Source of the DNA: Microbotryum violaceum
Lineage: Eukaryota
Direction: 5' to 3'
Assembly: GCA_001244265.2 (NCBI GenBank)
Contig: LN717261.1
Coordinates: 124,001 to 188,000, forward strand
DNA length: 64,000 bases
The position numbers were made by a program, and so were the translations under genes. Of this stretch, positions 482 through 52,526 are shown piece by piece. Within the stretch, counting starts at the first letter, position 1; each line of letters starts with the position of its first letter. The notes beneath the pieces are model-generated. The model did no database searches, was not told where the DNA came from, and worked only from the letters and a program-made list of their open reading frames with translations.

Positions 482-2440
482 ATGCCATCCGCCTCGTCAC
501 CCCCACCTCCCTCCCAATCGCCAGCCACAGTCTCCACACCAACGGCCTCTGCCTCCGTCAGTACTCCCAAACCGGGTGCGGGTCGTACAGGCGGTGGATT
601 ACAGCTTCCCGGTGCGCTGGGGAACAAGGGCAAGACGAAAGCTAATCCGAGTGCGGAAACGAGTCGTACGTTTCGTTTCGGGTATCATCCGATCCGCGCC
701 TGTGTTTATCTAACTACTAGTCGGAACCCTTACTCAACTTGGGTGCGTTTTGGGGGGGGGGGCTGCGAATAGGTAATAATACGACCAGAGATACTTTGAA
801 AGAGTAGGTCCTGAACTCTGTCAACTTGTGATGACCGTTTTCGTTTTCCTAGTTCCCTACTAACCCTCTTCCGCTCTCTCTCTCTCTCTCTCTCTAACCC
901 TCTCCCTCTCTCTCTCTCTTCCGCTCTCTCTCTCTTCTCTCTCTCTATTCAGACCCCACGAAACTACCACAAACACAAACACGACCACGGGCAAATTCGA
1001 ACATGAACCGAGCACGAACGTACAACACCTCATGGACGCTGTAGGAGCGAGTGGAGTTGATATCAACGTTCGTTTTAATCTAGCCTAACTAAGCCCCCCC
1101 AACCCCTAACCCCTAAAAAGAACCCCAATCTAAATCCTGACCCCAATCTAAATCCTGACCCCAATCTAAATCCTGAACCCTTCTTCCCAGGCCGAAGAAG
1201 ATTCACTACGACAACATCAACCTGTCCGATCTCACTTCAACACCACCTCTACTTCCCAACAACCCAACCCATCCACAACCCACACCCATACCCACACCCA
1301 CACCCACACCGCCACCACCGCCGCCTCCTCCGCACCTTCCACCTCAACCCTAACCGACCTCGACCTCCGAATCCATTCCCAATCCTTCATCGACCCTCAA
1401 GTTCTCGCCGACGTAGTTCGTAAAATCGCCGCCGAATATTCACTCAAAAGTTTAGAAGGTCAAACCATTCCTTTGATCGCTTTGGCTTGTCGAACTAGGT
1501 TAATGGATTTAATTTCCAATTCGATTCGAGTGAGGGATCATCGTCTAAATGCGAATCATTTAAGGAAACCTCCTTTTGATAATCAACTCAAGAGGAGAAG
1601 GAGGGATCAAGCTTTAGGGCAGGAGTATAGAGTACATGAGGAGGAGGATATGTTACAGGAAGGTAAAAAGGAACCTGTTTGGGACGCCGTCGTTTATGAT
1701 GAACCGGAAAAGGCTTTGTGGGTTTTGGAAAAGGTGGATAGGGAGGAAGAGAGGAAGAGGAGGAGGGAGAGGGTCTTGAGGGATGAGAAGGAACAAGAGG
1801 AGAAGGAATTGAGGGAAGCTGTCGAGGCGAGTGAGCGAGCACGTGAGGAGCAAGAACGCGATGATATCGCTATTTCCACCCCTGGTGTTGATGGTACCGA
1901 TCAAACGATGACGAATACGCTAGCTTCGACGGGCGGTATGGAAACGCCAAAATCGAACCCTCTTTTGAAGAAGAAGAAGAAGCGCGATTTGGGTCAAGCC
2001 GCGATCGCGAAGAACCTTTCAGGTGACGTGCAAAAACGTTTGACCGATCAAATCGCGATGCGATCTTTGGGCGGTCGATCGTTCTCTTGGCTTTCGGGAG
2101 CAGGTGGAGCAGCAGCGGGAGCTTCGAATATGTCGACTTCTAATCGACCTCATAACCAATCAGCAATGGGAACACCTACACTAGGAACGACCCCGACTGC
2201 ACGTTCCTCCTCCTTGAATCCTTTCCCATCCAGTTTGAACCGACTCACGACGATCCCTTCCTTACACGACGCGAATCGACAAAAACTCGACGCCGAAGAA
2301 ACTTGGCGCCAAGGTGCTCACGTCGTCGAATTGAAAGACATTTTATTCGCGTTGGATAATCAGAGGGGATGGGCTTGGGTAAAGGGGCGGGTAAGGTCGC
2401 GAGCTTGAAAGCTAGAGCGGGGGTGGTGAGAAAAGCTTGA
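482..2440 (+). CDS. TAF4: TFIID subunit TAF4
   Basis: Frame-consistent exons 482-665, 721-742, 953-1067 and 1191-~2440. Motifs LMDAVGASGVDIN/AEE, histone-fold LIALACRTRLMDLI, TDQIAMRSLGGRSFSWL and VELKDILFALD. A 1-nt frameshift in the G run near 2364 would restore a RGMGLGKGAG C-terminus. Confidence 0.85.
1123..1176. repeat. 18-bp tandem repeat x3 in TAF4 intron
   Basis: ccccaatctaaatcctga x3. Confidence 0.9.
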
Positions 2441-7408: not shown

Positions 7409-7679
7409 GGTCGTCGCACCGCACTCGTCCCGTCGGCAGCTCGATCGGCGTCGAGTTGCTTTGGTGCCAAGTCGAGAGAAAAGAGTCGGCGCGCGCCCTC
7501 ACGCCCGGATCTCGCGCAGGTCAGAATTCGGTTGAGAAAGCTTGGACCAACTTCCGCGCTTTCCGCGCTAAGTAATTTGTTCGGGTCCCTCGTTCTGGCA
7601 CCTAAGTCGGGATATACGTCTTTCGCGTTCCCCTCCTTTTTTCTATTTGACGCTTCTAACTGAAGATTAGTGCGCATCT

Positions 7680-8797
7680 GGCCGCAAGCCTGCAGGGCAG
7701 GATACCCCCTCCCTAATCGCAGCAAGGGACCGATCGGCCATCCAATGATATACCTCAGGTTGTTCGACCAAAAGCAACCCTCCACCCGTTCCAACCTGCT
7801 TCACCAAGTACCGGCTATTATTTTATTTCACGTCACCTGCGTTCATCAGCGGAATTCTTTCTCGGCCGTCGCCCGATGTCGGATTCCAACGAGTCGTTCC
7901 GTTGTCGCCGGCGCGAGCAGGTCGTCAGCTTTGATCTTCATTCTTTTGTACCTTATTGGCCTCGTCGCCTTCACATCTTAGTTTGATTAACTTTGGTTTC
8001 ATTGTTCCGTTTGTGGAAGGTAGACCGGGTTCATGACGTAGTCACGGTCTACGCCGACCAACTAAGACTTGACTCTTCTGCCTGCGTGCCGAGGTCGCTC
8101 TGCCAAGTTAGACGCACATACACCATTTAAAATCGCATAGAATAATATTTAAAGCTCATCCTTCCGACTTTTGGGTGAGCCTCGACTGCCGACGTTCTCA
8201 TCGTGCGACAGCGTCCGCCGCACCAAGACAGGGGACCGATACGATGGCAGACCCAGCTTTTCGCCGTATGAGGCGGACTGAATTCGTTTGTCGCTAACTT
8301 GCTTGTACAGCATTTAGGTATGTTATAGCACAACCGACGATCAAAGATGATAGGATACAATAAGGGATGAGATGTGAGTGAGAGCCTTAAGAGACTGGAA
8401 GAAAAAGACAGACCCGAAGCGGGAGATAGGGCGCCAGTGACGGGAAAGGGAGAGCCCGGGAGACACGTAGAATGCTTGGTCACCTGGCTTGTGTCAGCTG
8501 AATTATTTCCTCAATGCATGATCCGCTTGACGGAGCCCCACTACTCTCCTGAGGCCGATAATAACGAAGAGCCCCAAACAACTGCACTTGAACAGCTTGG
8601 CTGGTCGGCGACCCCTAAACGCGGTAAACCCCGGGACCGAGCAACGTCCAAAGCGGTCCAAACTCGCCCTTCCTTCCCTATTGTCCAGCTGAGGTGCCGA
8701 AATCAGTTTCGGTCAGCCCAACTCCGTGCCACCGCCTGCCATCATCGTCTCTTTCCCTCACTTTTCTGTGTGCTCTCATAGCCAACTCTCCACTCAT
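7680..8797 (+). repeat. Diverged copy of the ~1.1-kb region upstream of the effector gene at 20534
   Basis: Colinear with ~19335-20487, e.g. cctgcagggcaggata...ctaatcgcagcaagggaccgatc, acagcgtccgccgcaccaaga and tctccactcatc. Confidence 0.85.
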
Positions 8798-8799
8798 CT

Positions 8800-9302
8800 A
8801 CCAAGAGTAAACCCCCGCGCGGGACCTGTGGCACTACTCCGATTCTCGAAAGTGAGATGAGACCGTGCACGTGGTGATAGAGCAGACGTAAAGCACCGGA
8901 TTTTTTTAAGTCTTGCCGGGGCACGCGCACCGAGATGTCAAAAGTGAACACGATCGAGAGCTCATGGGCCGTGGAGGACGACAACATGGCGAAGCCTTCA
9001 GACCGAGGGCCGAGTATAGCTTAGGATTAGAAGTCGAGGTCAGTAAAAACGAAGCCTGGATAGGTATGGGACTGTCCAGCGGCAAGGGACTCACTAGCAA
9101 CGGACGATGATCATCCTGCGCACCCAATAGACATTCTTACACAAGCTGCAGGCCCGGGGCCGGTCATGATCAGGTTCATATTCTTGTGGCTACCCATTCA
9201 AGCGATCAACGACAAAGTGACTCTTGGTACTGGGTACTGTGAGCTAATGAGTACACCAGCGCGGCGGGACCATGTCCTTGGTCCGTATACTCACCGAGAT
9301 GC
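8800..9302 (-). repeat. Degenerate dispersed repeat, copy A (continues past the foldback to ~10150)
   Basis: The minus strand matches 33000-33445 (+): tgaacctgatcatgaccg, ggcttcgt..tt.ctgacct, gttgtc.tcctccacgg.cca and gtgttcac.tt.gaca. Confidence 0.75.
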
Positions 9303-10067
9303 TGTCAGAGTCAAGACCCAATGAAGGGAAGTAACAATGATAGGATAGAACGAAAAGGGGATGGAAGATCTACCCAACGTGGTACCGCACAGGATTCAAC
9401 TTTGATAGCACTTTGGGTGCGCGTGCGTGGAAGATGAAGATTTGGAAACGAAATTCAAAGATAGAGGGCTGAAGGATAATTCGGGTCAAGGTGTGGGAAC
9501 ACTATGGATTGAATGTTACAACTGAAGAAGAAAGGAACGAGAAAGAGAGACTAAATACTCCGGCCACCGGATATTCAAGTTGCCGAGCCGGCACGGACGT
9601 TCAGGGGTTGGTTCGCAACATTGCTCGCATCCGAAGAGGGAGCCGCAATATGCTGTGCAAATGGTTCGCATCCAAACGACATTACGGTACCCTCTCCGGA
9701 TGCGACCCATTTGCACAGCATATTGCGGCTCCCTCTTCGGATGCGAGCAATGTGCGAACCAACCCCTGAACGTCCGTGCCGGCTCGGCAACTAGAATATC
9801 CGGTGGCCGGAGTATTTAGTCTCTCTTTCTCGTTCCTTTCTTCTTCAGTTGTAATATTCAATCCATAGTGTTCCCACACCTTGACCCGAATTATCCTTCA
9901 GCCCTCTATCTTTGAATTTCGTTTCCAAATCTTCATCTTCGACGCACGCGCACCCAAAGTGCTATCAAAGTTGAATCCTGTGCGGTACCACGTTGGGTAG
10001 ATCTTCCATCCCCTTTTCGTTCTATCCTATCATTGTTACTTCCCTTAATTGGGTCTTGACTTTGACA
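9303..10067. mobile_element. Foldback element with TGTCA...TGACA ends, ~370-bp arms and a 5-bp TSD
   Basis: Arms 9303-9673 and 9698-10067 are reverse complements (6 substitutions and 1 indel by eye) around a 24-nt spacer. Flanks are GATGC and GGTGC. Confidence 0.85.
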
Positions 10068-10338
10068 GGTGCTCGTCTGAATGGCAAGCCTAAGGCCTCT
10101 TTCAAAGTCGTACCCGGAGTGCGTTCTGGTGGTCTGAGTCGGCGTCAAAAAAACCTGGCTCCTGGATTGCAGATTTTGCACAACTTTTTTATTTGAGGGG
10201 ATTTGAATCTGCCATTGCAACTGGATATACGAGGTGTTATTATTGCTCCTTCCAGTGTCGGTGTCTCTACGTCCAGCGAGGCGACGCGTGGCCGTTCAAA
10301 TTGAAGGGGGTCACTCCAGCTGCGCGAGCATGATCTCT

Positions 10339-12151
10339 TCACCCGAACCAGCTTTTTTCCATGATCTCCCAACCCTTGTCACCCAACAAGGATCGGATGT
10401 ACATCATCCCATACCTATCGAAGCACTGCTCGTCCGTCTCGTCCGGCAGGGCCTCTAATCCTTGACCCAATACGCCTCCACTCTGTTCGGCTTCCCGCAC
10501 GCGCTCCCACAGGATTAGGAACACCCTCGTTATGATCAACGCATCGAAGAAACTCCCCGTGATCCTGACCCCTGTCTCTCCGATCAAGCCCAACAGCTTT
10601 TCCGCTTCTCTGAATCGAATGAACCCCTCCCGCCATTCGGGCAAGATCCATCCTTTAACAAGCACTGTGGTGGCGACGTCCACGGAAGGATCATTGAGTC
10701 GCGCAAAGTAGTCGTTTATGCGACCCGAGTCGGCTATTTCGAGTCGACCGCCCATCCGAAATTGGCGGTACTGATCGAGCGCCAGCATCTGCAGCACCCC
10801 CGCAGGTCGTTGTGGTGAAGTGAGAAAGCCGACCAAATCTTGATAGGGAGGTTCGGTACCTTCTTCGAGTACAATCGACTCGAGCGAGGGCAGTTGCACG
10901 ATCGACTCCCAAAAGACGGGGGTAAGTTGCACAGCGCCTTCGAGCGAGAGGTGTCGTAAGCGCGTGAAGTGGGCCAGAGTTTCATCAAAGACGTCGACAG
11001 GCCGATAGTCCCAGGCCATGTATTGGCTACAGACGATAGCCAGGTCGCAGAGTTGGGTGGAGAGTGACCGAAGGTAAGGTACCAAGTTCTGGTCCCCCCA
11101 CTCGGGCAGAGGTAGACCTTCTCGGCGTGGGTAAAGCACGCCACAAAGCCGAGCAAGCGCGAGGATGAAAAACTGCCCGCGATCGTGACTTTTCTGATTC
11201 CCGGTAAACTGACTTCTGGATACGTCTTAACGTTTAGGTCCCATTCGGGTTCGTCTTCTTTCAAAGGCGGGATGAAGAAGGCGAGGTCTCGCAGACTCGG
11301 ATGCGAGGCCAGTCGGGCCAGTTGTCGAGGCGTCACACGAGACCGCGCAGGAAAGATGATTCGAAAACGGTATAGGCTCGGCGCGCAGGACCGTGCGAAC
11401 TCGTCGGAGAGTATGACGGTCAATAGATCAAATGGTTCCTCGGCGTCGTCGTTCCCGTCGCTAAAGGTGGAGTCGTCGCGTCGATCGTCGTCCTCCCCTT
11501 CAACGCCGAGATCGTCATACGCCTCATCGTTCTCCCCTTCCCCCTCTTCTTCCCCTCCGGCATCCCCGACCCATGAAAGACTTTTTAACCAAGTCATCGC
11601 CCTGAATCCTGCCAAGATCTCGTGTTGTCGCAGTGTTGGGCAGCTCTCCCGATCGATCTCCACATCCTCCAACTCGGTTCGGTCCGAGTTACCCCACATG
11701 GCGCTTTCGTGGTTCTCCTTCAGCTCGAGGTAACTCGCCGTGGGGTTGATCTTGAGTGAGCTGATCAGTCCTCCTAAACCGGGGGAAGTCATCAAGGTTG
11801 TATAGAAGAGCGCCTCAAACTGAGCCCAGCTGCGCAAGTCGATCGAATGGTACAAGGCAGCTCGCTGCTGTGCGAGCAGGGCCTTGCAAATCGGCCGACG
11901 TAGACAGTAATTAACCTTGTTAACCTCATTCCGGACGAGGAAGAAGATGCACCGCTGCAGCTCCGGGGGTAGTCGAGAAAAGTGACCAACGCCTTGCCGA
12001 TGCAGTGTCGATGATGAGGTCGCGTTTGCCGACGATGTTGTAGTGAGCTAGTAGACGGGTATGATGAGCGGGTTCAGTAGTCAAAGTAGACCATTTAGAG
12101 TCAGAGACCAGAGCTCACTGTGGTTGTGTCGTCGCCGTCGATATCCATCAT
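10339..12151 (-). CDS. F-box / LRR-like protein
   Basis: After a short first exon: FSRLPPELQRCIFFLV...ICKALLAQQRAALYHSIDL, then Leu-rich repeats (LRHLSLEG, LPSLESIVLE). ORFs 10734..11855 and 10339..11139 join by a 1-nt frameshift near 11105. Confidence 0.65.
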
Positions 12152-17850: not shown

Positions 17851-20533
17851 GTGCAGCAGGTTTTTTGAGGATTTTTTTGCAATGTTGTAAAGCTACACGA
17901 TCGTATGAAACCCCGCATCGTATCGCTTCGTCGGAAGTTTTTGTTGCTCATCTTTCTGGGATGCGCCTCGAGATAAAAGTGGAGGATCATGGCGTGTGCG
18001 CCCCATTGCAACGACTGGTGAAGCTCATTGTCATTTCATCGGGACCCAATTGCGTCATTACGCGGGCACGCGATCCGCGTAAGACTTGTTGAAGCGGTGA
18101 GTTACCTACCAGCAATCACGGTCGAGCTATTTAAGGAAAGAAAAAGTGGGGTCCGAGCCTCGCTCAAGAAGACTCGGTCGGATCTCCTCCGCTCTTACCC
18201 CACTCACGCCAGCTCTAGGCCACATCCTCTTGACCAAAAGCACGGCATTTCGCCTCGACGTATGTAAGTCCTAGCACCGCCAAAGCCGGCATACTTCTTT
18301 TACAACATAGTCTGCCTCTTCCAACGTTCCCAAAGATGATGATGCCCTTGGCCTTGTCTTAGATTTCTTAACATAGCAGTCCACACCTGTTCTCTTCTTT
18401 CATCAAAAGTTGGATCCGCCCATGGTGTCGTCGAGAAGCCAAAAGCCCCACTCCGATCTCCGACCCGACGTTCGAATTTCCGCTGGCGCATAACCTTTCT
18501 CAGTTCCAGTTCTTGTGGTCACTTCTCCGTTGTGACAACGCGCACTTCATATTGCTGGCCATCCTTCATCCTCATGAACTTATTCACATTGTACTCTCCC
18601 TCCTCATCCGCTCGTCATTGGCGCGCCGGCGCCCCTGACCGCTGCCGATGTGTCCGCTCCCTCGCGCACTCTCCCCGCTCGCTATGTCGAAGGCACTGTT
18701 CAGCAACGGAGGAACATCAGTCGGTTCGCTGAGAATTTTTCGCACAGATCTTGCTTTCAATTTTCCTTGAGTCTCCTCTCATCTTACCTCCCAGTTTTCT
18801 TCCAACGACAGGATTTTTCCCACCCCGTAGCAGTCACGAAGATCTCAAGACTGCCTCAATCCAAGCGTGAGTTCGAATTAACCTGATTATTGACCTGATC
18901 CTTCTATTAACCGGTTTCAATGCACTTCCTAGTCCCATGATCGACTCCCACGACTTCCCTTTGCGTGGTTCGAGCTCTCTTGCTACAACGGCACTCGCAC
19001 GGGCGCCCCATCTGCCGCCCTTCGAACATGGCAGTGAGTACGAGTATCGTCTACCATCCTATCCGAGTATGAAGCGTCGTTGCCGGTCCATTTTATGCCG
19101 TTCTTCGGGGTGGGTCCGACTATGACAAGAAAATTCATCTGTCAATATCACTGCCATCCGGACCGATTGCGAGGAAGGCATCTTTTTCCACATGGGCCAC
19201 GAGGCTGAGCTGTTCAACAGCGCTCAGTATATTGCCTCGAGTACCTCATTCTGGCACGTGTTGGGACATAAGTCCTTTGGGTTCCCCTTTTGTTCGGTTA
19301 CGTTTGAAACTGAAAACCACGCGCTCACCTGGCGCAAACCTGCAGGGCAGGATAGCCCCCCCTAATCGCAGCAAGGGACCGATCTGGCATACAACCATAC
19401 CTCTGTTTGTTCGAAAGAAAAGCAATTCTTCACCCCGAGACAACTTTGCTCACCAGAGTTCCGCTACCATTTTTTTTTTCATGACCCTGATCATCGTCAT
19501 CCGTTCATTTCTTCTCGGCCGTTGCCGGAATTCGGATTCCGACAGGAGCCGTTAGACTGTCGCCGGCGAGAACAAATCGTCAGCTTTTGTTATTCTTTTC
19601 TTCTGTACCTTTTTGGCCTCGTCGTGCGATTGCGCATCTTCCTTTTGTTTCCCCTTGGTTTTGCGGAACATAGGCTCGTTTCATTTTGTAGTCAGGATCT
19701 ATGCCGACCGACTCAGATTTGACTCTTCTGCCAGCGTCCTGCAAGTCGACCTCTTTGCGTCGCTCTGCTAGATTCGGTGCACATGTACCATATAAAATCG
19801 CATAGAAAGCGAGCCATACTAACTGTAAGCTCCCCCTTCCGACTTCTGGGTGAAATCCGGCTAGCGACATTTTCCTTCGAACGACAGCGTCCGCCGCACC
19901 AAGAAAAGGACTCAACATGACGGCAGACCCCGCCATGCGCCGCATGAAGCCGAATTCGCTCGACGTTAAGTAGTACCGCATTTCGGTATGGTATAGCAAA
20001 CCGGATGATCAAATATGACATAAGAAGAAAAGTAATGAGGTGTGAATAAGAGCCTGAAGATATAGGAAGCGAGAGCGAGACCCAAAGCGATAGACAGGGG
20101 GCAGTGATCGGAACGAGAGAGCCTGGGAAAGTGGTGTGGAAAGGGGTAGAACTGTTCAATCACCTGGCCCGTGTCAGCTGATTCATGTTGTCATGACCCG
20201 CTCGGCTGAAGGCGCACTACGCTCCTGAGATCGGTGCAATAAGGACGATGCCAAGACGCCTGCACTAAAACCGCTTGTAAAACCGCTTGTCTGGTCGTCG
20301 ACCCCTGAACACGGCAAAACCCTGGCCCGGGCGATGTGCAAATCGGTCCGAACTGGCCCTTCCCACATTGTCCAGCTGACGTCCCCCAAACCGATTTCGG
20401 TCATCCCGACTCCGTGCCATCGCGGACAACTATCGTCTGTTTCCTTTCTTTTCCTGTGTGCCCTCATAACCAAATCTCCACTCATCAAGGTCCCACTTCC
20501 AACGTTTCAAACCTCCAAGCCACGTCACGGAAC

Positions 20534-22420: not shown

Positions 22421-22844
22421 TCATCGATTTTCCTCAGTTCTCTTCGGTGTTAGCAATTTTCGTCATCCCCCTCCTGGTGGCGCAAATTTAGTAGCGCTCA
22501 GACTTAACGGGGACCAGAAGATCCTGTCTTATGTAAACACGCATCGAAACTTGTTCGTGCTCTTCCTCACTGTTCGGACCTTTGGTCGTTCGAGCGGATC
22601 TCGCTTTGACCCCTGAACGCGGCAAAACGCTGACCCGGGCGACGTCCAAATCGATCCAAACCGGCCCTCCCCCACTCCCCCTGTTCAGCTAAAGTGCCCC
22701 AAATTCAGTTCGGTCAGTCCGCCCATACCACCGCGGGTGACTGTCGTCTATTATACTCCCTTTTCCTGTGTACCCTATAACCAAATCTCCACTCATCAAG
22801 GTCCCATTTTCAACGTGTCAAACCTTCAACCCACGCCACGAAAT

Positions 22845-23456
22845 ATGGCTCGCTTCTATCTCCTTGGACTCGTCGCAGTCGCGCTCGCGATCCAAGCCCC
22901 CTCACTCTCACTGGCGTACGAAAACCCGCCCTCAGATTGTCGAAGCGAAGCCGACAAGACCCAAATGATCCCCGTGCGTGCTGGCGTGCTTTTGACATCA
23001 TTGCCGGTTCCCTGTGTTTGCGAACTGACCGCCACGTGATTCTTTCATCGCAGGGTTACTCCCAGCCCTGTGAAACCAGAGCGCACATACCTCACGATGT
23101 TGTCTACTTTGGCCTATGCCTGTGCGTAAGCAAGACCTGGTGGAGAAAATACGACACGTGCCTCAAACGCGGTGCGTGCTTCCTTCCTTGATGATATGAG
23201 GCGATTTGTGGTCTTGACAATTGCTTACACATCATACCTTCGGTGTCATCCTCGGCACTTCAGTGACGGATTCTAGCTGGAAGACCGCCATCGCTGCCGA
23301 TAGGCAACGTCGCTGCAACGACTGCTCCCAGGAGTTCCCACCATCGCCCGGTTCTACCTACCGTAAGCTTTTGTAACTTTCTCAAGCACGACGAGCCAGC
23401 GTTTCATAACGATTTTCTTCTTCATCGTCGGTATAGCCGGAACCTTGGGATGCTAG
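22845..23456 (+). CDS. Small secreted 8-Cys protein, candidate effector (121 aa), paralog of 20534
   Basis: Exons 22845-22973, 23054-23171, 23264-23362 and 23437-23456. Begins MARFYLLGLVAVALAIQA; same 8 Cys and GC* terminus. Confidence 0.85.
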
Positions 23457-23894
23457 TGATGACGAGCGAGTCAAAGACCAGCGTGTAGCGGCCGTGCCGA
23501 TAGGCAACGTCGCTGCAACGACTGCTCCCAGGAGTTCCCACCATCGCCCGGTTCTACCTACCGTAAGCTTTTGTAACTTTCTCAAGCACGACGAGCCAGC
23601 GTTTCATAACGATTTTCTTCTTCATCGTCGGTATAGCCGGAACCTTGGGATGCTAGTGATGACGAGCGAGTCAAAGACCAGCGTGTAGCGGCCGTGCCGA
23701 TAGGCAACGTCGCTGCAACGACTGCTCCCAGGAGTTCCCACCATCGCCCGGTTCTACCTACCGTAAGCTTTTGTAACTTTCTCAAGCACGACGAGCCAGC
23801 GTTTCATAACGATTTTCTTCTTCATCGTCGGTATAGCCGGAACCTTGGGATGCTAGTGATGACGAGCGAGTCAAAGACCAGCGTGTAGCGGCCG
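23295..23894. repeat. Perfect 200-bp tandem triplication
   Basis: tgccgataggcaac...gtgtagcggccg starts at 23295, 23495 and 23695. Confidence 0.95.
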
Positions 23895-28702: not shown

Positions 28703-28990
28703 TTCGCGTGGAAAGCGCCGCCGCCGGATTATAAAAGCGCAATTATAATAACCTAATGCCCCATTTCACCGAGGGGGTTTCGCGTGGAAAGCGCCGCCGC
28801 CGGATTACAAAAGCGCAATTATAATAACCTAATACCCCATTTCGCCGAGGGGGTTTCGCGTGGAAAGCGCCGCCGCCGGATTACAAAAGCGCAATTATAA
28901 TAACCTAATGCCCCATTTCGCCGAGGGGGTTTCGCGTGGAAAGCGCCGCCGCCGGATTATAAAAGCGCAATTATAATAACCTAATGCCCC
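28703..28990. repeat. 76-bp tandem repeat (~3.8 copies) in the RPN10 / L17 divergent promoter
   Basis: ttcgcgtggaaagcgccgccgccggattayaaaagcgcaattataataacctaat starts at 28703, 28779, 28855 and 28931. Confidence 0.95.
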
Positions 28991-29092
28991 GCCCCAATTC
29001 GCCATCAATCGATCCGCGCAACGCTCCCCCCCGTCGGTCGCTCCTTCTGCATCTCACCTCCCGCATCGAACCCCACCGCTCACTTAACAACG

Positions 29093-30313
29093 ATGCGTCA
29101 CCGCTTAGGCTACAACCACCTGTCGCGTCCGACCGCGCACCGCATGTCGATGCTCCGTAACCTCGTCTCCTCTCTACTCGAACACGAACAAATCAGCACC
29201 ACGCTCGCGAAAGCGAAAGCGACCCAACGCATGGCCGAGCGCGTCATCGAATTGGGCAAGAAGGGTGGCGCGAACGAGTGGAAGAGGGCCAACGCTTTCC
29301 TGTGGGTAGGTCGAACCGTTTATTGGATGGGGGGAAAAGGTAGAAGATCGAGCGAGCAAAGACGAAAGCGCAGACCTCCTTTTTTTACTCGCCTCCCCCG
29401 CGTCTCCCCCTCGTCCTCCACCACATTCTTACTGACCTCGTCCCCCCTTCCAAAACAGAACGCTCCCACCACCCTCCGACCACTCTTTACGAGTCTCGCC
29501 GAACGCTACGCCTCCCGACCTGGCGGCTACACTCGCCTAATCCGTTCCGGACATCGGGTCGGTGATCATGCCCCCTTGGCCATTCTCGAACTCGTCGATA
29601 ACCGCAACGATTTCAAATTCGAAACCGCTTCCAAAGCCTTGGCTAGGGAATTGGCTTTACGTGCAAAGGGGGAAGGGGAACGTAATGGACCGGATGTGGG
29701 ACCGGATGTGTGGTGGGGTTTGAGAACGAGGTTGGAAGCCTTTGGCGAAGAAGGAATTTTCGGTCAATTGGAAAAAGAACCCACTATCGATTCGATGACG
29801 AAGAAGAACGTACTCAAAGCTTTGAGGTATAGGAAACCTTTCACCCCTTTGACTTTGGATTCGAATTCGACCGAAACGACGACGACCAACGCGATTCATC
29901 CATCGGTCCAATTCCTCAATCGCACCCATCATCACTACCTCCACCACCTCGCCTCCCTCCAACTCTCCACCCCTTCCACGCCCTCCTCTTACAAAACTAT
30001 AAAACAACTCACCCAACGCTTACGACCTTCCGAAAGTAGAGGCGCTCCGAGACCCGTATTGACCGTACCTATGATGGGTCGACGCGTCGCAGCGGGTCAG
30101 TCGACGCGAGGTTGGGCCCAGCAGCACGAACAGCGGTCAAAGTCTTCTTCTTTGGACGGGTTGGAGCAGAGACTTTCCGGATTGGACTTGGGACAGGCCA
30201 AGGGGAGGGAAAAGGGGGGTCCGATCTCGAGGGCCAAGGCGGGCAGATCGAGGGGTGCGAGGAGCGCCACTAGGGCTTCTTCGACCACAGCGAGGACAGA
30301 GGCGGGGCTTTGA
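29093..30313 (+). CDS. MRPL8: Mitochondrial ribosomal protein L17 (bL17m) with C-terminal extension
   Basis: MRHRLGYNHLSRPTAHRMSMLRNLVSSLLEHEQISTT and ERYASRPGGYTR; intron 29306-29458. Confidence 0.9.
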   Translation: MRHRLGYNHLSRPTAHRMSMLRNLVSSLLEHEQISTTLAKAKATQRMAERVIELGKKGGANEWKRANAFLWVGRTVYWMGGKGRRSSEQRRKRRPPFFTRLPRVSPSSSTTFLLTSSPLPKQNAPTTLRPLFTSLAERYASRPGGYTRLIRSGHRVGDHAPLAILELVDNRNDFKFETASKALARELALRAKGEGERNGPDVGPDVWWGLRTRLEAFGEEGIFGQLEKEPTIDSMTKKNVLKALRYRKPFTPLTLDSNSTETTTTNAIHPSVQFLNRTHHHYLHHLASLQLSTPSTPSSYKTIKQLTQRLRPSESRGAPRPVLTVPMMGRRVAAGQSTRGWAQQHEQRSKSSSLDGLEQRLSGLDLGQAKGREKGGPISRAKAGRSRGARSATRASSTTARTEAGL

Positions 30314-32949: not shown

Positions 32950-33445
32950 CCAAGAACGTGCTCCCCACCGGGAGGATTGGCTGAAGGCGTTCGAAACCTG
33001 TCTTTCCGGCGAGCCTCTCGATGACTTTACGGACTAAAGAAATGCCCACGACATCGATGTGCGCACCCATGCCTTATTTGATGACGTGAGCCGGTAGCCT
33101 CAGTAATGTGAACCTGATCATGACCGACTTAACGCCGCGACTTGTTTAAGAATGTTTATCGCGTGCCCCGGAGTGTCCGTTTCTAGGCCCTGCCGCTGTA
33201 CCGCCTCATAACTCTATGGGCTTCGTGTTTGCTGACCTGCACGACTTACCGTGTCTCATACTTGGCGCTCCGTCCAAAACCTGGGCTTCGTTGTCCTCCT
33301 CCACGGTCCACTCTCTCCGATTGTGTTCACGTTCGACAACCCGCTGCGCATTCCAAGACCATCAAGCCTGGCCCTCCACTTCTGGTCCAGCCCCGCCGTT
33401 TTCATTTGACTTTTGATAATCAAAGTGTTGTCCTACAGTAGACAT
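32950..33445 (+). repeat. Degenerate dispersed repeat, copy B (carries the empty site of the foldback)
   Basis: cgagcctctcgatgactttacggactaaagaaatg aligns with cgagcatctcggtgagtatacggaccaaggacatg reconstructed across the 9303-10067 insertion. Confidence 0.7.
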
Positions 33446-33754: not shown

Positions 33755-34171
33755 CCGAAACCCGAGTGTGAGACTAGCTACCTCTCACTCAACCACTTCG
33801 AAAGAGGAGATCCTCGCCGCACCCAAGAAAGACAAGGGTGTGGCACGAAGTGATGAATCGCCATCACCAATCGGCGGTGCCCGGACAGCGATGCCAAGGC
33901 TTCCAATGTCGACACGGGCCGATGACCTCGCCCGAAAAACCCGACGTGTTTCGGCGCCGATGCCGAACCGAGAACGAACTGGCGGGTTTCTCGGGCGAAG
34001 TCATCGGCCCGTGTCGACACTGGAAGCCTTGGCATCGCTGCCCGGGCACCGCCGATTGGTGATGGCGATTCATCACTTCGTGCCACACCCTTGTCTTTCT
34101 TGGGTGCGGCGAGGATCTCCTCTTTCGAAGTGGTTGAGTGAGAGGTAGCTAATCTCACACTCGGGTTTCGG
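33755..34171. repeat. Long inverted repeat / hairpin with 189-bp arms and 39-nt loop
   Basis: 33755-33943 is the reverse complement of 33983-34171 with 5 mismatches. Confidence 0.95.
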
Positions 34172-37100
34172 AGCGAAGTCGTAAATGAACGTTCGCTTCT
34201 GTGGTCGGCCATGGTATGTTCAAGTATACGAGGGTTAATTACATCCTGTACTCAAATCAGTTACTTTGTCCAGTGAAGCAACGTGGTCCATCTCAGAAAG
34301 AGTGTGTCAAGGATAGCTGGTTTCACCGTCCTCATCCGATCACAACATCTAAGTTGGTTCTTGGGATCGGGCCCAACGTGCCTTCATTTGGCCCGTTGGT
34401 ATCTCAATCTCCCAGCTCTAATTGTCTCCTTAGTTACTCTATTATTGCAGCGCTTTACCAGTTAGCCTTCCACGAGTCTGTCCCTTAGTCTCTGGCCACT
34501 CTGTTCTCGTCCCTGTTCATTGGACTGAGTCGTGGTCATCATCAGAGAACAATCCGTAAAAGAGAGGTCTGTGCCTTTCCACTCAGGAGTAGAAATTGAC
34601 ACGTCGTGCTACTCGCGACGACACGAGGTCGAGGCTTTCGCAACGAGGCTCTGTTGCTAAGCAACGTTTTTCTGTCTGTTACCAGAGCAGATATACCTTT
34701 CTTCAAGGCAGACAACTCCTTCAGAAGTCAGTCCAAGAGGTACCATGCGAAGTATTTTGAAACTGCTAGCGGTAAGGGTTGTCGATCGGCTTGTCCTCCA
34801 GCGATGGTTTCGTGTCGAGTTCGGGGTTGCTGAAGTCCACTAAAAGAAGATGTAAGGCCGGTGGCCTTACAGAGGGATCGCAGGTACTGGGCCGATCGCT
34901 CGTCGTATTCGAAGGGGTATGGTTGACTCTGTTCATGTTTCAGAAATCGGTTCCGAATGAATGTCTTATCTAAGAGAGATAGAGAGAGGATCGAGACTGA
35001 ACTACGTACACAAAAGGGAAAATATTGGTCCAATATTTGGTCAGCCGGGTTTCGGCCAGATTCGGTCCTTGGTCCTGTGCGTGCGAGGCCGCTCGGGCCT
35101 CACACTCGCAGTCATTTCGGGCCTACTCCGATCGGGAGGAGTAACGATGTTGTTCTATCGATGCAGTGTCATAAGTCACAGCGCGATCGTCACTTCTTGA
35201 ACTGAGAAGGCCCTTCCACCAAAAGGATCGTTGGAAGGTTGGGTGAAGAAGGATGTGTGAGGGAGAGGCAAGAAGAGGAAGAGCGCGCACGCGGTGAGAG
35301 ACTTGAGCCTGTTGAAAGAGGATTCAGCGCATGCAGCTCTTGAAGGTGCCTTCACTTTTGGTGTACTGGTTAAGGCGACCAGGATGGTTTTACAACAGAC
35401 TGCGATGACGAACACGAGACACCCGCAGTGAAGCCATATGTATGTAGTGCCGACGGTGTGCATGAGGAGACGTGCTTGCGGAGCAGACGGTACGAAGATA
35501 GATTGTAGCACATGCTTGGATCCGGATAACGTCTGGGGCCGGTGAATTGGTAGTGAGGCTCAGACTCGCTGCTGAGCAGCAAGTTGATCCTCCTCAAGGT
35601 ACGCTCACTTCTGACAACAACTGTTGTTGACCAAGCCAGGACTTCAATTGATTGATGAGAAGGAATGCGAAGAAGACGAAAACTGACTGGGGAAAACGGG
35701 GAGACGGATCTACGAAACGATAGGACACAAGAGTAGAACCCAATTCAATGTTGCTAGAGGTGGCGGGGCGATGAAATGCGACCATGACCGCGAGTCTGAG
35801 CGTGAGCGGAAAACGACGACGCTGGAGTTTGACTCGCTCATCTTCACTTTTTCGCGCTCGCCGCGTTTCCAATGATCATCGTGATCGTCAGTTACGGCAC
35901 GTGTGCTACGAAACGCTTGCTCGTCCTGCTTGTGAACGTCAAGCAGGCTCACCGGCGTGCTACTAAAACGGTGCATTCGTGATACTGGACGGCACACCTG
36001 ATCGCGCTATTTTTCCGATTGCGGATCCGTTGCTGAAGTGCCGAGGACACCAAAAATAGGATATGTAAGAAACTTCAAGACCGAAAGTCGCATCATGTCG
36101 TCAAGGACGCAAGCACTAGCCTCTGAGTAGCTAGAACTGCCGAGTTCTAGTTAAGACTTGCTTTTAATCTAGTGGTCAAGAACGACAGATTGTATTTTAT
36201 GCACATCAGAGGCGCATATATAGGGCTGTTCTGTAAGGCATCCCCTTAGAGCAAAGCTCAGACCCACACGTCCGACTTCCCATTATCTAGTGCGGTTTTC
36301 ATTCGTCTATCTAATTGTTTGGTTTACTTGATGTAATCAAGGAACAGAGACGAAGTCATACGAAATGGAAGTAATATACATCAGAGCTCCGATTGACTGC
36401 GCGTGTTTCTTGGCGCACAGTTGGTGGGCCGCCGAGCATTCGCCGCAGCAAGGGGGCCTGTTGACATTCCTCCCACTTTAGTCGGATTATAGGTCCGAGC
36501 CTGTACCGTCTCTTTCGGTTGGAAAATACTGACTCCTCTCGCTTCCTCCAAAGGTGCCCGTGGGTTTAGCTACAACATGAAGGGGTCCGGAACGGTGAAG
36601 CTAGCCTTCGGACCCGACAATCGGCCTGTCCCGTAATAAATGGAAGCGAACTAGCCCTAGTGCTGATGGGTGCCGCGGCCCGTCCAAGTGGGTAGACACC
36701 GCATGTCGACAGAAAATCACAAACCGACCCGACGCCGAACGAAGACCAAAGAGATGCTACCGAATGTGCCCGAAATAGATTTTGACGGGCCTCGGTGGGT
36801 TGGTCCCGGCCCCCGTCGAGCAGTAGCGGAAGCTGCCGATGTTGTCGTGAGTGCCAAAGCCTGTAAATCAGATTTTTCTGATGGAAAAAAATGACCGGTT
36901 CATACTTGCAGTAATGATTTTAAGTGGTTGGCTCCAACTTGGAACCCAGCTGCGTCCATCTTGGCCAAGAGACACAGGAAGACTAGCCCAGAGCAGCATG
37001 ATTACTTTTTCAACTGCGTTCGGTGGAATGCGTCTGGTGGAGTGGGTTTGTCATGGGGGCACGATGAGTAAATTGATTATCAAAGGGGACCCGGGGGTGA

Positions 37101-37716: not shown

Positions 37717-43261
<5,545 letters not shown>

Positions 43262-49708: not shown

Positions 49709-52526
49709 CTAAACGGAGATTCGTTTCATCAAATCCGGCACCTTGTAAGGCTTGGTGACGACATCATCCATCCCTGCCTGGAGCCCCATCTTAATCTGCG
49801 CCTCCCTCGCATTCCCGGTCAACCCGACAATCCTCGTCTTGCGACTCTTGTCCCTCTCCTCGAGTGCACGAATCGCCCTCGTTGCCCCTAGTCCATCCAT
49901 AACGGGCATCTCGTAATCCATAATGATGCACGCTATCTTGGCACTGTGCAAATGCAACAGCTCGAGCCCTTCCTGACCATTCTCAGCGAGCAAAACTCCC
50001 TCGGCCCCAGATTGGAGCAATTGCTTGCGCAAGACGGTGCGGTTGATCTGATTATCCTCGCAACAGAGGATCGTCTTGCCCGCCAAGGGGAGAATCGGTT
50101 GCTCGGAGTCCCCTTCGGCTTCTGGCAGGCGAGGATCATTGTTGAGTTTCATGCGTGGGGCTTGACCGGGACGGGCTTCGGTGATGCCTTCGATGACGGG
50201 GACTCCGTCCGCCTCGGCTTCCGTCGCTCCGGCGTCGACGGAACGGGCGGTGATGAAGCAACGGAAGATCGAGCCTTCGCCGACTTTGGATTGCACTTCG
50301 ATACGCCCGGCTTGCAACTCGCACAAATCTGCAGGGGGCTGAGCGGCGTCAGTAATAGCGACATATTGCAACGACACGGATATGTTCTGCTCGACCTACT
50401 CCGAGCGATCCACAGACCGAGTCCAGAGCCTCCCATCGTCGAATGAGTGAACGGGGACGCCTGCGTGAACTTTTTAAACAACTTCGACGTCTCCTCCTCG
50501 GTCATACCCGGTCCCGTATCCGCAACCGAGAAGAAGAGGTAGACAGGCCGCTGCTTCTCGATGTAGTATTCCGTCTCCGCCGGCGGTACGATCTGGCCTC
50601 CTCGATCCGGGGGCTGGCCCGACACCTCGACGGATAGCACGACTTTACGAACAGCCGATTTGGCCGTGAACCTGACTGCGTTCGAAAGGAGATTGACAAG
50701 AACCTGCGACAGACGCGTCGGATCCGCCAAGACGCGGGCATGCGGGCCCAATCGTTTGAGCGAGTTGCCGAGCGATAATTCGAGCTTGATTCCTTTCGCC
50801 TTGCATTCGCTCTTCCACATCCGGCATATGTTGCGCAGCGAGGCGATGAGGTCGAACTCGATCGAGGCGATCGTGTACTTAGAGAGCTGGATCTGAGCCA
50901 AGCCCAGAATGTCATTGGCTATTCGCTCTTGCGCGTGGCCGCATTGGATGATGGCGTCGCATGCCTCGATGTTCTCTTCGACTTGTTCGATTGTTTTGCG
51001 TGTGAAGCAGAGAGGGAGCTCATTCGTCTTTTCGAGGCGTAGCATAGATGCATATAAGCCGTCCATAGACGATCGGGTTAACTCGGCGTTCTGAAGAATG
51101 GCCGAGATGGGGTTGCGCAGTTCATGTGATGCAACTGTTGGAGCATAGTAAGAGTGAATCATCAGTGATTCTGGTTGAATGCTTTGAATCCGAAGGGATA
51201 CAAGCCAGCTCACCATCAAGGAACAGCTCGGTCGCCTTCTTCTCCTGCACCGCCTCGGTCGCCCGTTCTTCTGCAGCCTCAGCTGCCTTCCTCGCCAAAG
51301 CCTCATTCTCTACACTCAGCGCAACCACTGCCTGCTCTGCAACGAGCTTCGCCCTCGCACTTTCTTCCTTTTGCCGCAAAAAGTGTAGCTCGTCTACCTT
51401 AAACTTGGCCACACTTTGGGTGGAGAGCACGCCGAGTCGAATAAGGATAGGTCGGGATACTTGGTCAGTAAGCAAATGTGTGCTGTAAACCTTCGAACCC
51501 TTTATGCGCAGACTCACTTGGTCAGCGATCCAACCATCGCGTACGGTTTTCCATCTTCATCGCAGAGTGGGGCGACTGTTGAAACTGTCCAATTTTCGCT
51601 GTCGTCGCCCCCTAAGGACAACCATCGGAATTCGCACGAATCGCGCTGATGATGTGCGATGACTGACGAGTGAAGACAAAGATGCCATGAGCTACAGCTT
51701 CAGTGCAAGTTGGGTGAGGAAGCCGAACTCACGCCGGTCGCGGTATTCGGTCACCACGGGGATGTCTTCCGGTTCGATCTGCGAGGTTTTATTGGGCAGC
51801 TAAAAGTCAGATGTCCACTTTCCAATCGCCCCTTGGACCCCGGAACTCGTCGGCCCGTGGGCGTCGTTGAAAGTCTAAACCACTCACCCGCTCCCCCCAC
51901 CTATCGTGGTCCTCCTGTCCATACATGCCTGTTATTTTGAGCCACTCTTTGTTGACCCACAAGACGGAGCAGTCGAGGCTCATCGTCAGCAGGCCTATTG
52001 GGGCTTCGTATGCGGCCGCCGCGAGCTCGTTCCGAACCGAGGGGAGGTTCGAGGCCGTCAAGACGAGTAGGCGACCGTGGCGCGAGATCCTCCACTTGGA
52101 AGTGTAAGCGCGATCTTTGAAAGCTTTGGTTTTGGTCAACCGTAAGGTGAGCATGTTGCGCTTGTCCTTGTTGTATGGTGTCTGTGGTAACTCCCGCCCG
52201 CCAGCGCGTGCAGTCTGGCCATCAGAGAATCCTCGGCATGCTTCGAGCAGTGCTTGCAAGGGCGACGCATCCTCGATGGCGTCGAGAAAAGAAGAGCGAG
52301 AGGTGCCAGGTCCAAAGTAGTCTCGCAACGCCTCGTTCTCCAAGTGAGGCGTAGGGAGCTGTGACTTGAGGCCGGCGGCCCTTGCAGTATCAGCAGCAGC
52401 AGTCTGAGAGCCTGGCCCGCCGCCGCAGTCCTTGCGGCTATCGCCGATCGTCCAGGCCACCGTGGGCGTCTCGGATTCGAGGATGTAGTCGATCAGCTCG
52501 ATGGGTAGATCCTTGAGAACAGCCAT
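49709..52526 (-). CDS. Hybrid histidine kinase (PAS-like, HisKA, HATPase, receiver)
   Basis: H-box SHELRNPISAI, QVLVNLLSNAVRFT, DTGPGM, GGSGLGL and receiver EDNQIN...IMDYEMPVMDG...TKPY. Confidence 0.92.

Follow-up and report, generated by a model that had tools for sequence, protein, structure and literature searches.

The window, that is, the whole stretch of 64,000 nucleotides analysed (C1:124001-188000 of a 33-Mb, 20-contig assembly of Microbotryum violaceum), contains at 9303-10067 an almost perfect palindrome of 765 bp with the ends TGTCA...TGACA (Table 1). Its two inverted arms are identical in 364 of 371 alignment columns and differ by six substitutions and one indel. The palindrome has no match in Rfam and is overlapped by no ORF of at least 150 aa, which bears out its description in the earlier note as a non-coding element with two ~98% identical arms around a 24-nt spacer. 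The flanking 5-mers, GATGC and GGTGC, are alike at four of five positions. The element was inserted into an old host repeat, and a Pfam scan of the neighbouring ORFs on its right returned no match. Pfam identifies host genes for TAF4, ribosomal L17, the largest subunit of RNA polymerase and a histidine kinase elsewhere in the window (1170-2408, 28985-30313, 37717-42474 and 50149-51309, respectively), where three exact 200-bp tandem copies (23295-23894) and a 76-bp tandem array (28703-28990) are also found.

Table 1. The palindrome, its surroundings, and the related loci of the two LTR families. Positions refer to the window unless a contig is named.
Feature	Position	Strand	Target duplication	Basis or remark
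Old low-copy host repeat receiving the element	7565-9302	.		69-72% alike to 19220-20486, 22608-22797 and 33093-33349
Left target-site copy GATGC	9298-9302	+		paralogous uninterrupted site is GAGGC
Left arm, 371 nt, last 371 nt of LTR (part of U3, TATA-like box, CT tract, R-U5)	9303-9673	-		U5 end outward; orientation from PPT-preceded copies
TATA-like GTATTTAG, left arm	9551-9558	-		sequence, conserved in family alignment; putative function
5' half of native U3 stem TCGCATCC, putative fold-back point	9666-9673	+		copies C14 and C13R have the same stem-loop
24-nt spacer, loop of native U3 stem-loop, LTR sense, continuous with right arm	9674-9697	+		
Right arm, 370 nt, last 370 nt of LTR, U5 end TGACA outward	9698-10067	+		
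TATA-like GTATTTAG, right arm, then CT-rich tract	9812-9819	+		sequence and family alignment; putative function
Right target-site copy GGTGC	10068-10072	+		flank sequence
Neighbouring ORFs, F-box-like by language-model features (lead only)	10339-12047	-		3' end faces the element ~270 bp away
Paralogous uninterrupted ('empty') copy of insertion site	32997-33438	-		flank alignments
Arm family, C18: solo LTR			GGTGC/GGTGC (5/5)	
Arm family, C7: solo LTR			ACTAC/ACTAC (5/5)	
Arm family, C14: solo LTR with an insertion			GCAGC/GCGGC (4/5)	
Arm family, C5a				purine tract AAAAGGAAGGGGAG and internal sequence directly before LTR
Arm family, second C5 copy				truncated
Arm family, C13L and C13R: two full LTRs head to head				175 bp between, including purine tract and internal pieces; 9.9% apart
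Second family, L077: U5-out fold-back	C1:2226399-2226958		CGGAC/CGGAC	
Second family, L078: U5-out fold-back	C2:283683-284251		GCTTC/GCTTC	arms one base apart, centre different
Second family, L086: U5-out fold-back	C1:1457399-1457805		CTGAC/CTGAC	short arm, LTR nt 54-117
Second family, L089: U5-out fold-back	C15:529638-530038		AAAAC/GAAAC	short arm, LTR nt 54-117

An identical copy of the palindrome occupies the matching place of contig C2 within near-identical flanks, so that the two represent one locus on homologous contigs (C1 and C2) and not a second insertion. Four of the 20 public runs bearing the region, from four studies and under three organism labels, were aligned to 8300-9697; no RNA run was listed among those bearing it. 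The left flank is joined to the arm in contigs of all four, which removes the concern of a chimeric read raised in the earlier note. The right flank is joined to the arm end in three of them, as loose ends, the aligned stretch stopping before the right arm, and one record of run X1, which just meets the 31-letter rule, spans the palindrome centre without differences. Neither an empty allele nor a plain solo-LTR allele was seen in the four aligned runs, and the orthologous empty sites envisaged earlier for other strains thus did not appear among them. Runs X11 and X13 had been candidates for such strains, with a word share of ~0.69 as expected without the element; they were rejected once the alignment showed the element to be present. 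Both differ from the window by eight substitutions and three gaps in ~1040 flank bases (~0.8%), and the presence of the palindrome despite this divergence indicates that it predates that split. The arm differences at 9577 and 9617 are absent from most run contigs and that at 9515 is seen only in X1, which implies that the arms were even closer before the split, while the difference at 9429 is common to X6 and X11. All four runs have one extra G relative to the window at position 9155, probably an assembly error in C1.

The left flank aligns over 302 of 479 columns to the minus strand of 33013-33438 as far as the 5-mer, and beyond the second 5-mer 11 of 16 bases match the same paralogue (binomial p 4e-4, anchored comparison). 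This arrangement supports a real insertion with a 5-bp target duplication, GATGC/GGTGC, as had been claimed, through collinearity with a distant paralogue. The 'empty site' placed near 33008 in the earlier note stands as an uninterrupted match; judged by its sequence, it is a distant paralogue, only 63% alike, and not an allele. Homology ends 16 bases past the site, since the right flank further on reaches a score of 22 against the paralogue, a value attained by 178 of 200 shuffles; this part of the flank is single-copy.

Among the best-scoring candidates of three own-genome searches there are seven other arm units at six places, ~370-870 bp in length and all single-armed, and these copies are ~500-bp LTRs. 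Three of the seven are solo-type TG...CA units with 5-bp target duplications, the remainder being truncated, PPT-flanked or unclear. The earlier note had envisaged the arm elsewhere as LTRs, as further palindromes or as terminal repeats around an integrase ORF; it is the first form that was encountered, with no palindrome at other sites among the best candidates and no copy with these ends around an ORF in the genome searches. The target 5-mers GATGC, GGTGC, GCAGC and ACTAC suggest a weak preference. A nested cluster of inverted and direct repeats (L046 5914-7008; arms of 55-141 nt, 84-96%) lies 1.3 kb from the C7 solo LTR.

C5a and C13L share internal sequence, and each is preceded by the polypurine tract (PPT) AAAAGGAAGGGGAG. 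This tract fixes the orientation of the LTR, with TGTCATAGTCA as the start of U3 and TGACTCTGACA as the end of U5, and it follows that both outer ends of the palindrome are U5 (3') LTR ends. Right arm and spacer together correspond to the final ~400 nt of the LTR; the left arm is an inverted copy of its final 371 nt. Two earlier proposals are thereby upheld, namely that each arm read outward resembles the 3' part of an LTR and that two LTR parts are joined head to head. The U3 of the family (L022 4936-5451 and relatives) consists of ~31-bp subrepeats that vary in number and each contain short inverted repeats, providing many hairpin sites. The centre of the palindrome coincides with a native stem-loop of this repetitive U3, one of several such stems and not uniquely strong, which C14 and C13R still carry; its loop, the spacer, belongs to the strand that would be synthesised first. 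The palindrome resembles solo LTRs and non-autonomous LTR retrotransposons (TRIM/LARD; fungal Ty3/Gypsy-like or Ty1/Copia) in its TG...CA ends, short terminal inverted repeat, TATA-like box and 5-bp duplication, and its relatives have the PPT before the 3' LTR that characterises LTR retrotransposons (feature set from a section of PMC2864245). It differs from them in having two inverted U5 ends instead of U3...U5 and in missing the 5' part of U3, and, whereas an intact LTR retrotransposon or TRIM has two direct LTRs around a PBS and a PPT, its arms are inverted and it has neither an internal region nor a PPT of its own. Neither a 5' LTR with a PBS nor a full-length element of the arm family was found among the best candidates of the own-genome searches, nor a full-length or autonomous parent in the ~40 kb that separates and surrounds the two C5 copies. 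Nine of the 44 ORFs surrounding C5a were scanned for RT and integrase and gave host desaturase domains only, and the internal remnants of the family contain no self-primer complement longer than 11 nt.

We propose that the palindrome probably arose when an aberrant cDNA of an LTR retrotransposon, with a U5 end on either side, was inserted once, and that it is now dead. After the first strand transfer, the minus strand would grow from U5 and R into U3, fold back on an 8-9-bp U3 stem with a 22-24-nt loop, and copy itself out to the U5 end, in which case the left arm would be the copied one. Priming from a second strong-stop DNA or primer would then carry synthesis of the other strand across the hairpin. 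The product, a linear duplex terminated at either side by a TG...CA U5 end, would be inserted by integrase supplied by an autonomous partner. The fold-back and second-strand steps are those that we infer. The same outcome could be reached if a longer head-to-head cDNA were later trimmed by deletion between two TCGCATCC copies. The cDNA reading is supported by the fact that both arms are LTR 3' ends, by the native U3 inverted repeat at their join and by the position of the whole within one 5-bp duplication. Because it has no PBS, PPT or internal region, the element cannot be reverse-transcribed again. Of the earlier idea that an integrase moved the palindrome, the action of an integrase is likely, but movement as a unit is not, given a single locus.

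This proposition is consistent with the part of the Ty1 work in which any DNA ending in TG...CA is inserted by integrase with a 5-bp duplication, and in which composite elements ascribed to faulty priming and strand switching also become integrated (PMC2939329). As far as those composites are described there (Friedl et al. 2010, PMC2939329), they resemble the palindrome in being TG...CA-ended DNA inserted by integrase within a 5-bp duplication; they differ in being laboratory events with transformed DNA, whereas the palindrome is natural, made of its own LTR only, and shared by several strains. The literature search returned nothing on U5-U5 concerted integration, and the second-strand priming step draws on general background and on the Ty1 result. 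Likewise, no description of natural palindromic two-U5 LTR insertions was found in the literature searched, a body that leaves most subscription journals outside.

A second LTR family, different from and younger than the arm family, serves as a calibration with that caveat. It was searched with a similar palindromic object of 560 bp from elsewhere in the genome, and the best 40 of 65 candidates were classified. Its LTR measures 117 bp and its internal part, which ends in a purine-rich tract, 232 bp. Inverted arms with two exact U5 ends occur at four of these 40 loci, each within its own 5-bp duplication; there are no U3-out fold-backs among the 40. When the present element is added, the U5-out tally is five of five, which under even odds has a one-sided chance of 1 in 32 in what is a small sample from two families. 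Locus L112, with two LTRs whose U3 ends point outward 192 bp apart, was considered as a U3-out fold-back and rejected, as its first LTR has its own duplication and its middle is not element-derived.

The four fold-backs have three different centres and different private variants, which indicates that they arose independently and not by the spread of one palindrome. The short arms of L086 and L089 (64-65 bp) meet where 12 bp of the LTR, situated ~25 nt downstream of a TATA-like box, are complementary to the beginning of the internal part. Complementarity of this kind, between the LTR and the adjoining internal sequence, is the layout of Tf1-type self-priming, as presented in a portion of PMC7175516, and points to reverse transcription; the finished minus strand would fold back through the complement and copy R-U5. 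The palindrome of this family on C2 carries private variants on both arms without a matching source, and a missing source is therefore not unusual. The 27 solo LTRs of the family (L101-L128, with L123 left out; L107, L108 and L127 share flanks) comprise 16 with a 5/5 duplication, eight with 4/5 and three with at most 2. An imperfect 4/5 duplication was accordingly dropped as a sign of old age, since eight of these 27 young solos also have one. In five of the eight it is an outer position (1 or 5) that is mismatched, perhaps because the gaps left at integration are repaired with errors.

The divergence of the arms leaves room for another explanation. The arms are 1.6% apart, yet 8.4-9.8% from their nearest relatives (C18 and C14); they share 10 substitutions and one deletion seen in no other copy of the family, and in the tree the stem leading to them measures 0.042 and their own branches 0.008-0.009. 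The closeness of the arms, set against this distance, would imply a source lineage that was active late and left no close copy, a later homogenisation, or a fold-back in place. In the last case, a template switch would have occurred on an old solo LTR: the nascent strand would fold at the U3 stem, copy 371 nt and rejoin at the short terminal inverted repeat of the LTR, replacing its first ~120-200 nt. The original solo LTR would have sat in the 5-bp duplication, and integrase would have acted on that element only. We regard this course of events as unlikely, though it is the main rival of the cDNA reading. It would account for arms far younger than their distance to any relative, and the private changes per copy (9-14 in five copies, 20 and 23 in two) amount to a similar load per solo copy, as after one old burst. 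The native LTR ends form a 10-of-11-bp terminal inverted repeat, which would enable a template switch on the chromosome to rejoin precisely at the LTR end and to that extent speaks against the cDNA reading, as does the failure to find a 5' LTR, a full-length element or an RT/integrase ORF of the arm family in the genome searches. Template switching between inverted repeats is moreover described, in a part of PMC8604942, as homogenising the arms, and another fold-back lies 24 kb away.

That second palindrome of the window (33755-34171; 189-nt arms, 39-nt spacer, 97%) is a fold-back within a repeat of at least 2.3 kb, whose six other copies are not palindromic. Its left end falls arbitrarily within the repeat, of which it lacks the upstream part, and a 258-bp insert comes after it at 34300-34558. 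It appears to be what an in-place event looks like in this genome, and the exact ends of 9303-10067 are unlike it. The palindrome shares with quasi-palindrome template switching and fold-back inversions a join at a short native inverted repeat and homogenised arms; it differs in that both its ends lie exactly at the integrase attachment end and in its 371-nt arms, the events given in that part of PMC8604942 having arms of ~7-16 bp. Further evidence against an in-place switch is that no such form occurs among the 27 solos of the second family or the other solos of the arm family, that the second family reaches its four exact-ended forms in 40 loci with a terminal inverted repeat of only TGTAA, and that the ordinary-solo allele is missing from four of four runs, two of them ~0.8% diverged in the flank.

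It is improbable that the head-to-head arrangement was produced by double insertion or end-joining of two independent elements or cDNAs, followed by loss of the centre through deletion between short repeats. Inverted tandems of LTR elements, formed by double insertion, are on record in Drosophila (in a passage of PMC5932611), and the C13 locus offers a pair of this form within the arm family. Two rare events would however be required in a family of about eight LTRs, no internal target duplication is left, and the 10 private substitutions common to both arms imply a single source molecule or homogenisation. The C13 pair may instead be an older product of the same kind as the palindrome. At this locus (L024 4036-5540) the left U5 end occurs as a tandem array of four 79-bp units, and there is no clear target duplication.

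It is very improbable that the palindrome is a MITE, a non-autonomous DNA transposon, that depends for its movement on a DDE transposase of the Ginger type or another. The palindrome has the TGT...ACA ends of the TGTNR pattern, long inverted terminal arms, a target duplication and no coding capacity, as a MITE would, but instead of several dispersed copies there is one locus only, C1 and C2 being the same site. As far as Ginger1 and Ginger2-TDD are covered in a section of Bao et al. 2010 (PMC2836005), they share with it the TGTNR termini, inverted terminal repeats and integrase-type chemistry. Its 371-bp arms exceed the 40-270 bp of Ginger1 and the 50-180 bp of Ginger2, and its 5-bp duplication is neither CCGG/CCGT nor of 4 bp; in the same section only TDD-4/5 have 5 bp, and Ginger2/TDD elements target RTATAY with a 4-bp duplication, so that the GC-rich target is also a misfit (PMC2836005). 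The palindrome contains no transposase and no sign of excision or re-insertion, and its relatives are single LTRs with PPT and solo-LTR structure, which leaves the earlier suggestion of a Ginger-derived MITE unsupported. DIRS elements are not known to make a target duplication. Inverted LTR-like ends are shared with DIRS-1, as depicted in part of PMC3950715. DIRS elements use a tyrosine recombinase, whereas the arm family has direct-LTR anatomy, a PPT and 5-bp duplications, seen at three solo copies as well as at the palindrome. Long-read chimeras can yield perfect-looking palindromes, and the absence of the differences at 9577 and 9617 from most aligned contigs counts for an assembly or chimeric-read artefact, an explanation of virtually negligible probability that we judge refuted by the presence of the two junctions, and of the centre, among public contigs from four studies, by the arm difference shared with X6 and X11, and by two flanks that differ from each other and are collinear with a paralogue.

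Taken as a single locus, the integrated two-U5 cDNA that we favour would be a dead retrotransposon remnant. Its value lies in its not being alone: together with the four of 40 second-family loci, it brings such products in this genome to at least five, which suggests that two-U5 cDNAs form and integrate often enough to be counted. For annotation, finders based on terminal inverted repeats plus target duplications will call such objects MITEs. Such insertions are also a source of long inverted repeats and a potential one of hairpin RNA against the parent family. In a passage of Bao et al. 2010, the terminal repeats of Ginger1 might stem from two LTRs in opposite orientation, the chain of events being left 'unclear' (PMC2836005), and fold-back offers a testable mechanism for this conversion of LTRs into terminal inverted repeats. 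One could go further and hypothesise that fungal LTR elements regularly give rise to fold-backs when they are reverse-transcribed, and that this amounts to a one-step conversion into TIR elements and to the missing route from Gypsy to Ginger, with the 765-bp palindrome as its minimal product; we hold this wider proposition to be quite doubtful. No example of a re-mobilised or integrase-bearing fold-back was found in this analysis. In the self-priming second family, where the fold lies at the primer/PBS complement, the entire internal region is retained; it is bordered by inverted R-U5 ends of 64 bp and enclosed with them in a 5-bp duplication. If the proposition were true, the same event in an autonomous element would put an integrase gene between short TG...CA inverted repeats, which is the anatomy of Ginger1.

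Each arm keeps ~115 nt upstream of its TATA-like box, and outward promoter activity on both sides is plausible from the sequence. Two outward transcripts of identical sense would result, which would not pair with one another, contrary to the earlier idea of dsRNA arising from outward promoters. Folding computation predicts ~368 pairs for a transcript across both arms, and a hairpin RNA of ~370 bp would therefore be expected only if the element were transcribed across by read-through from outside. The F-box-like gene on the minus strand, which ends ~270 bp to the right and is itself a lead only, is a possible candidate source of such read-through.
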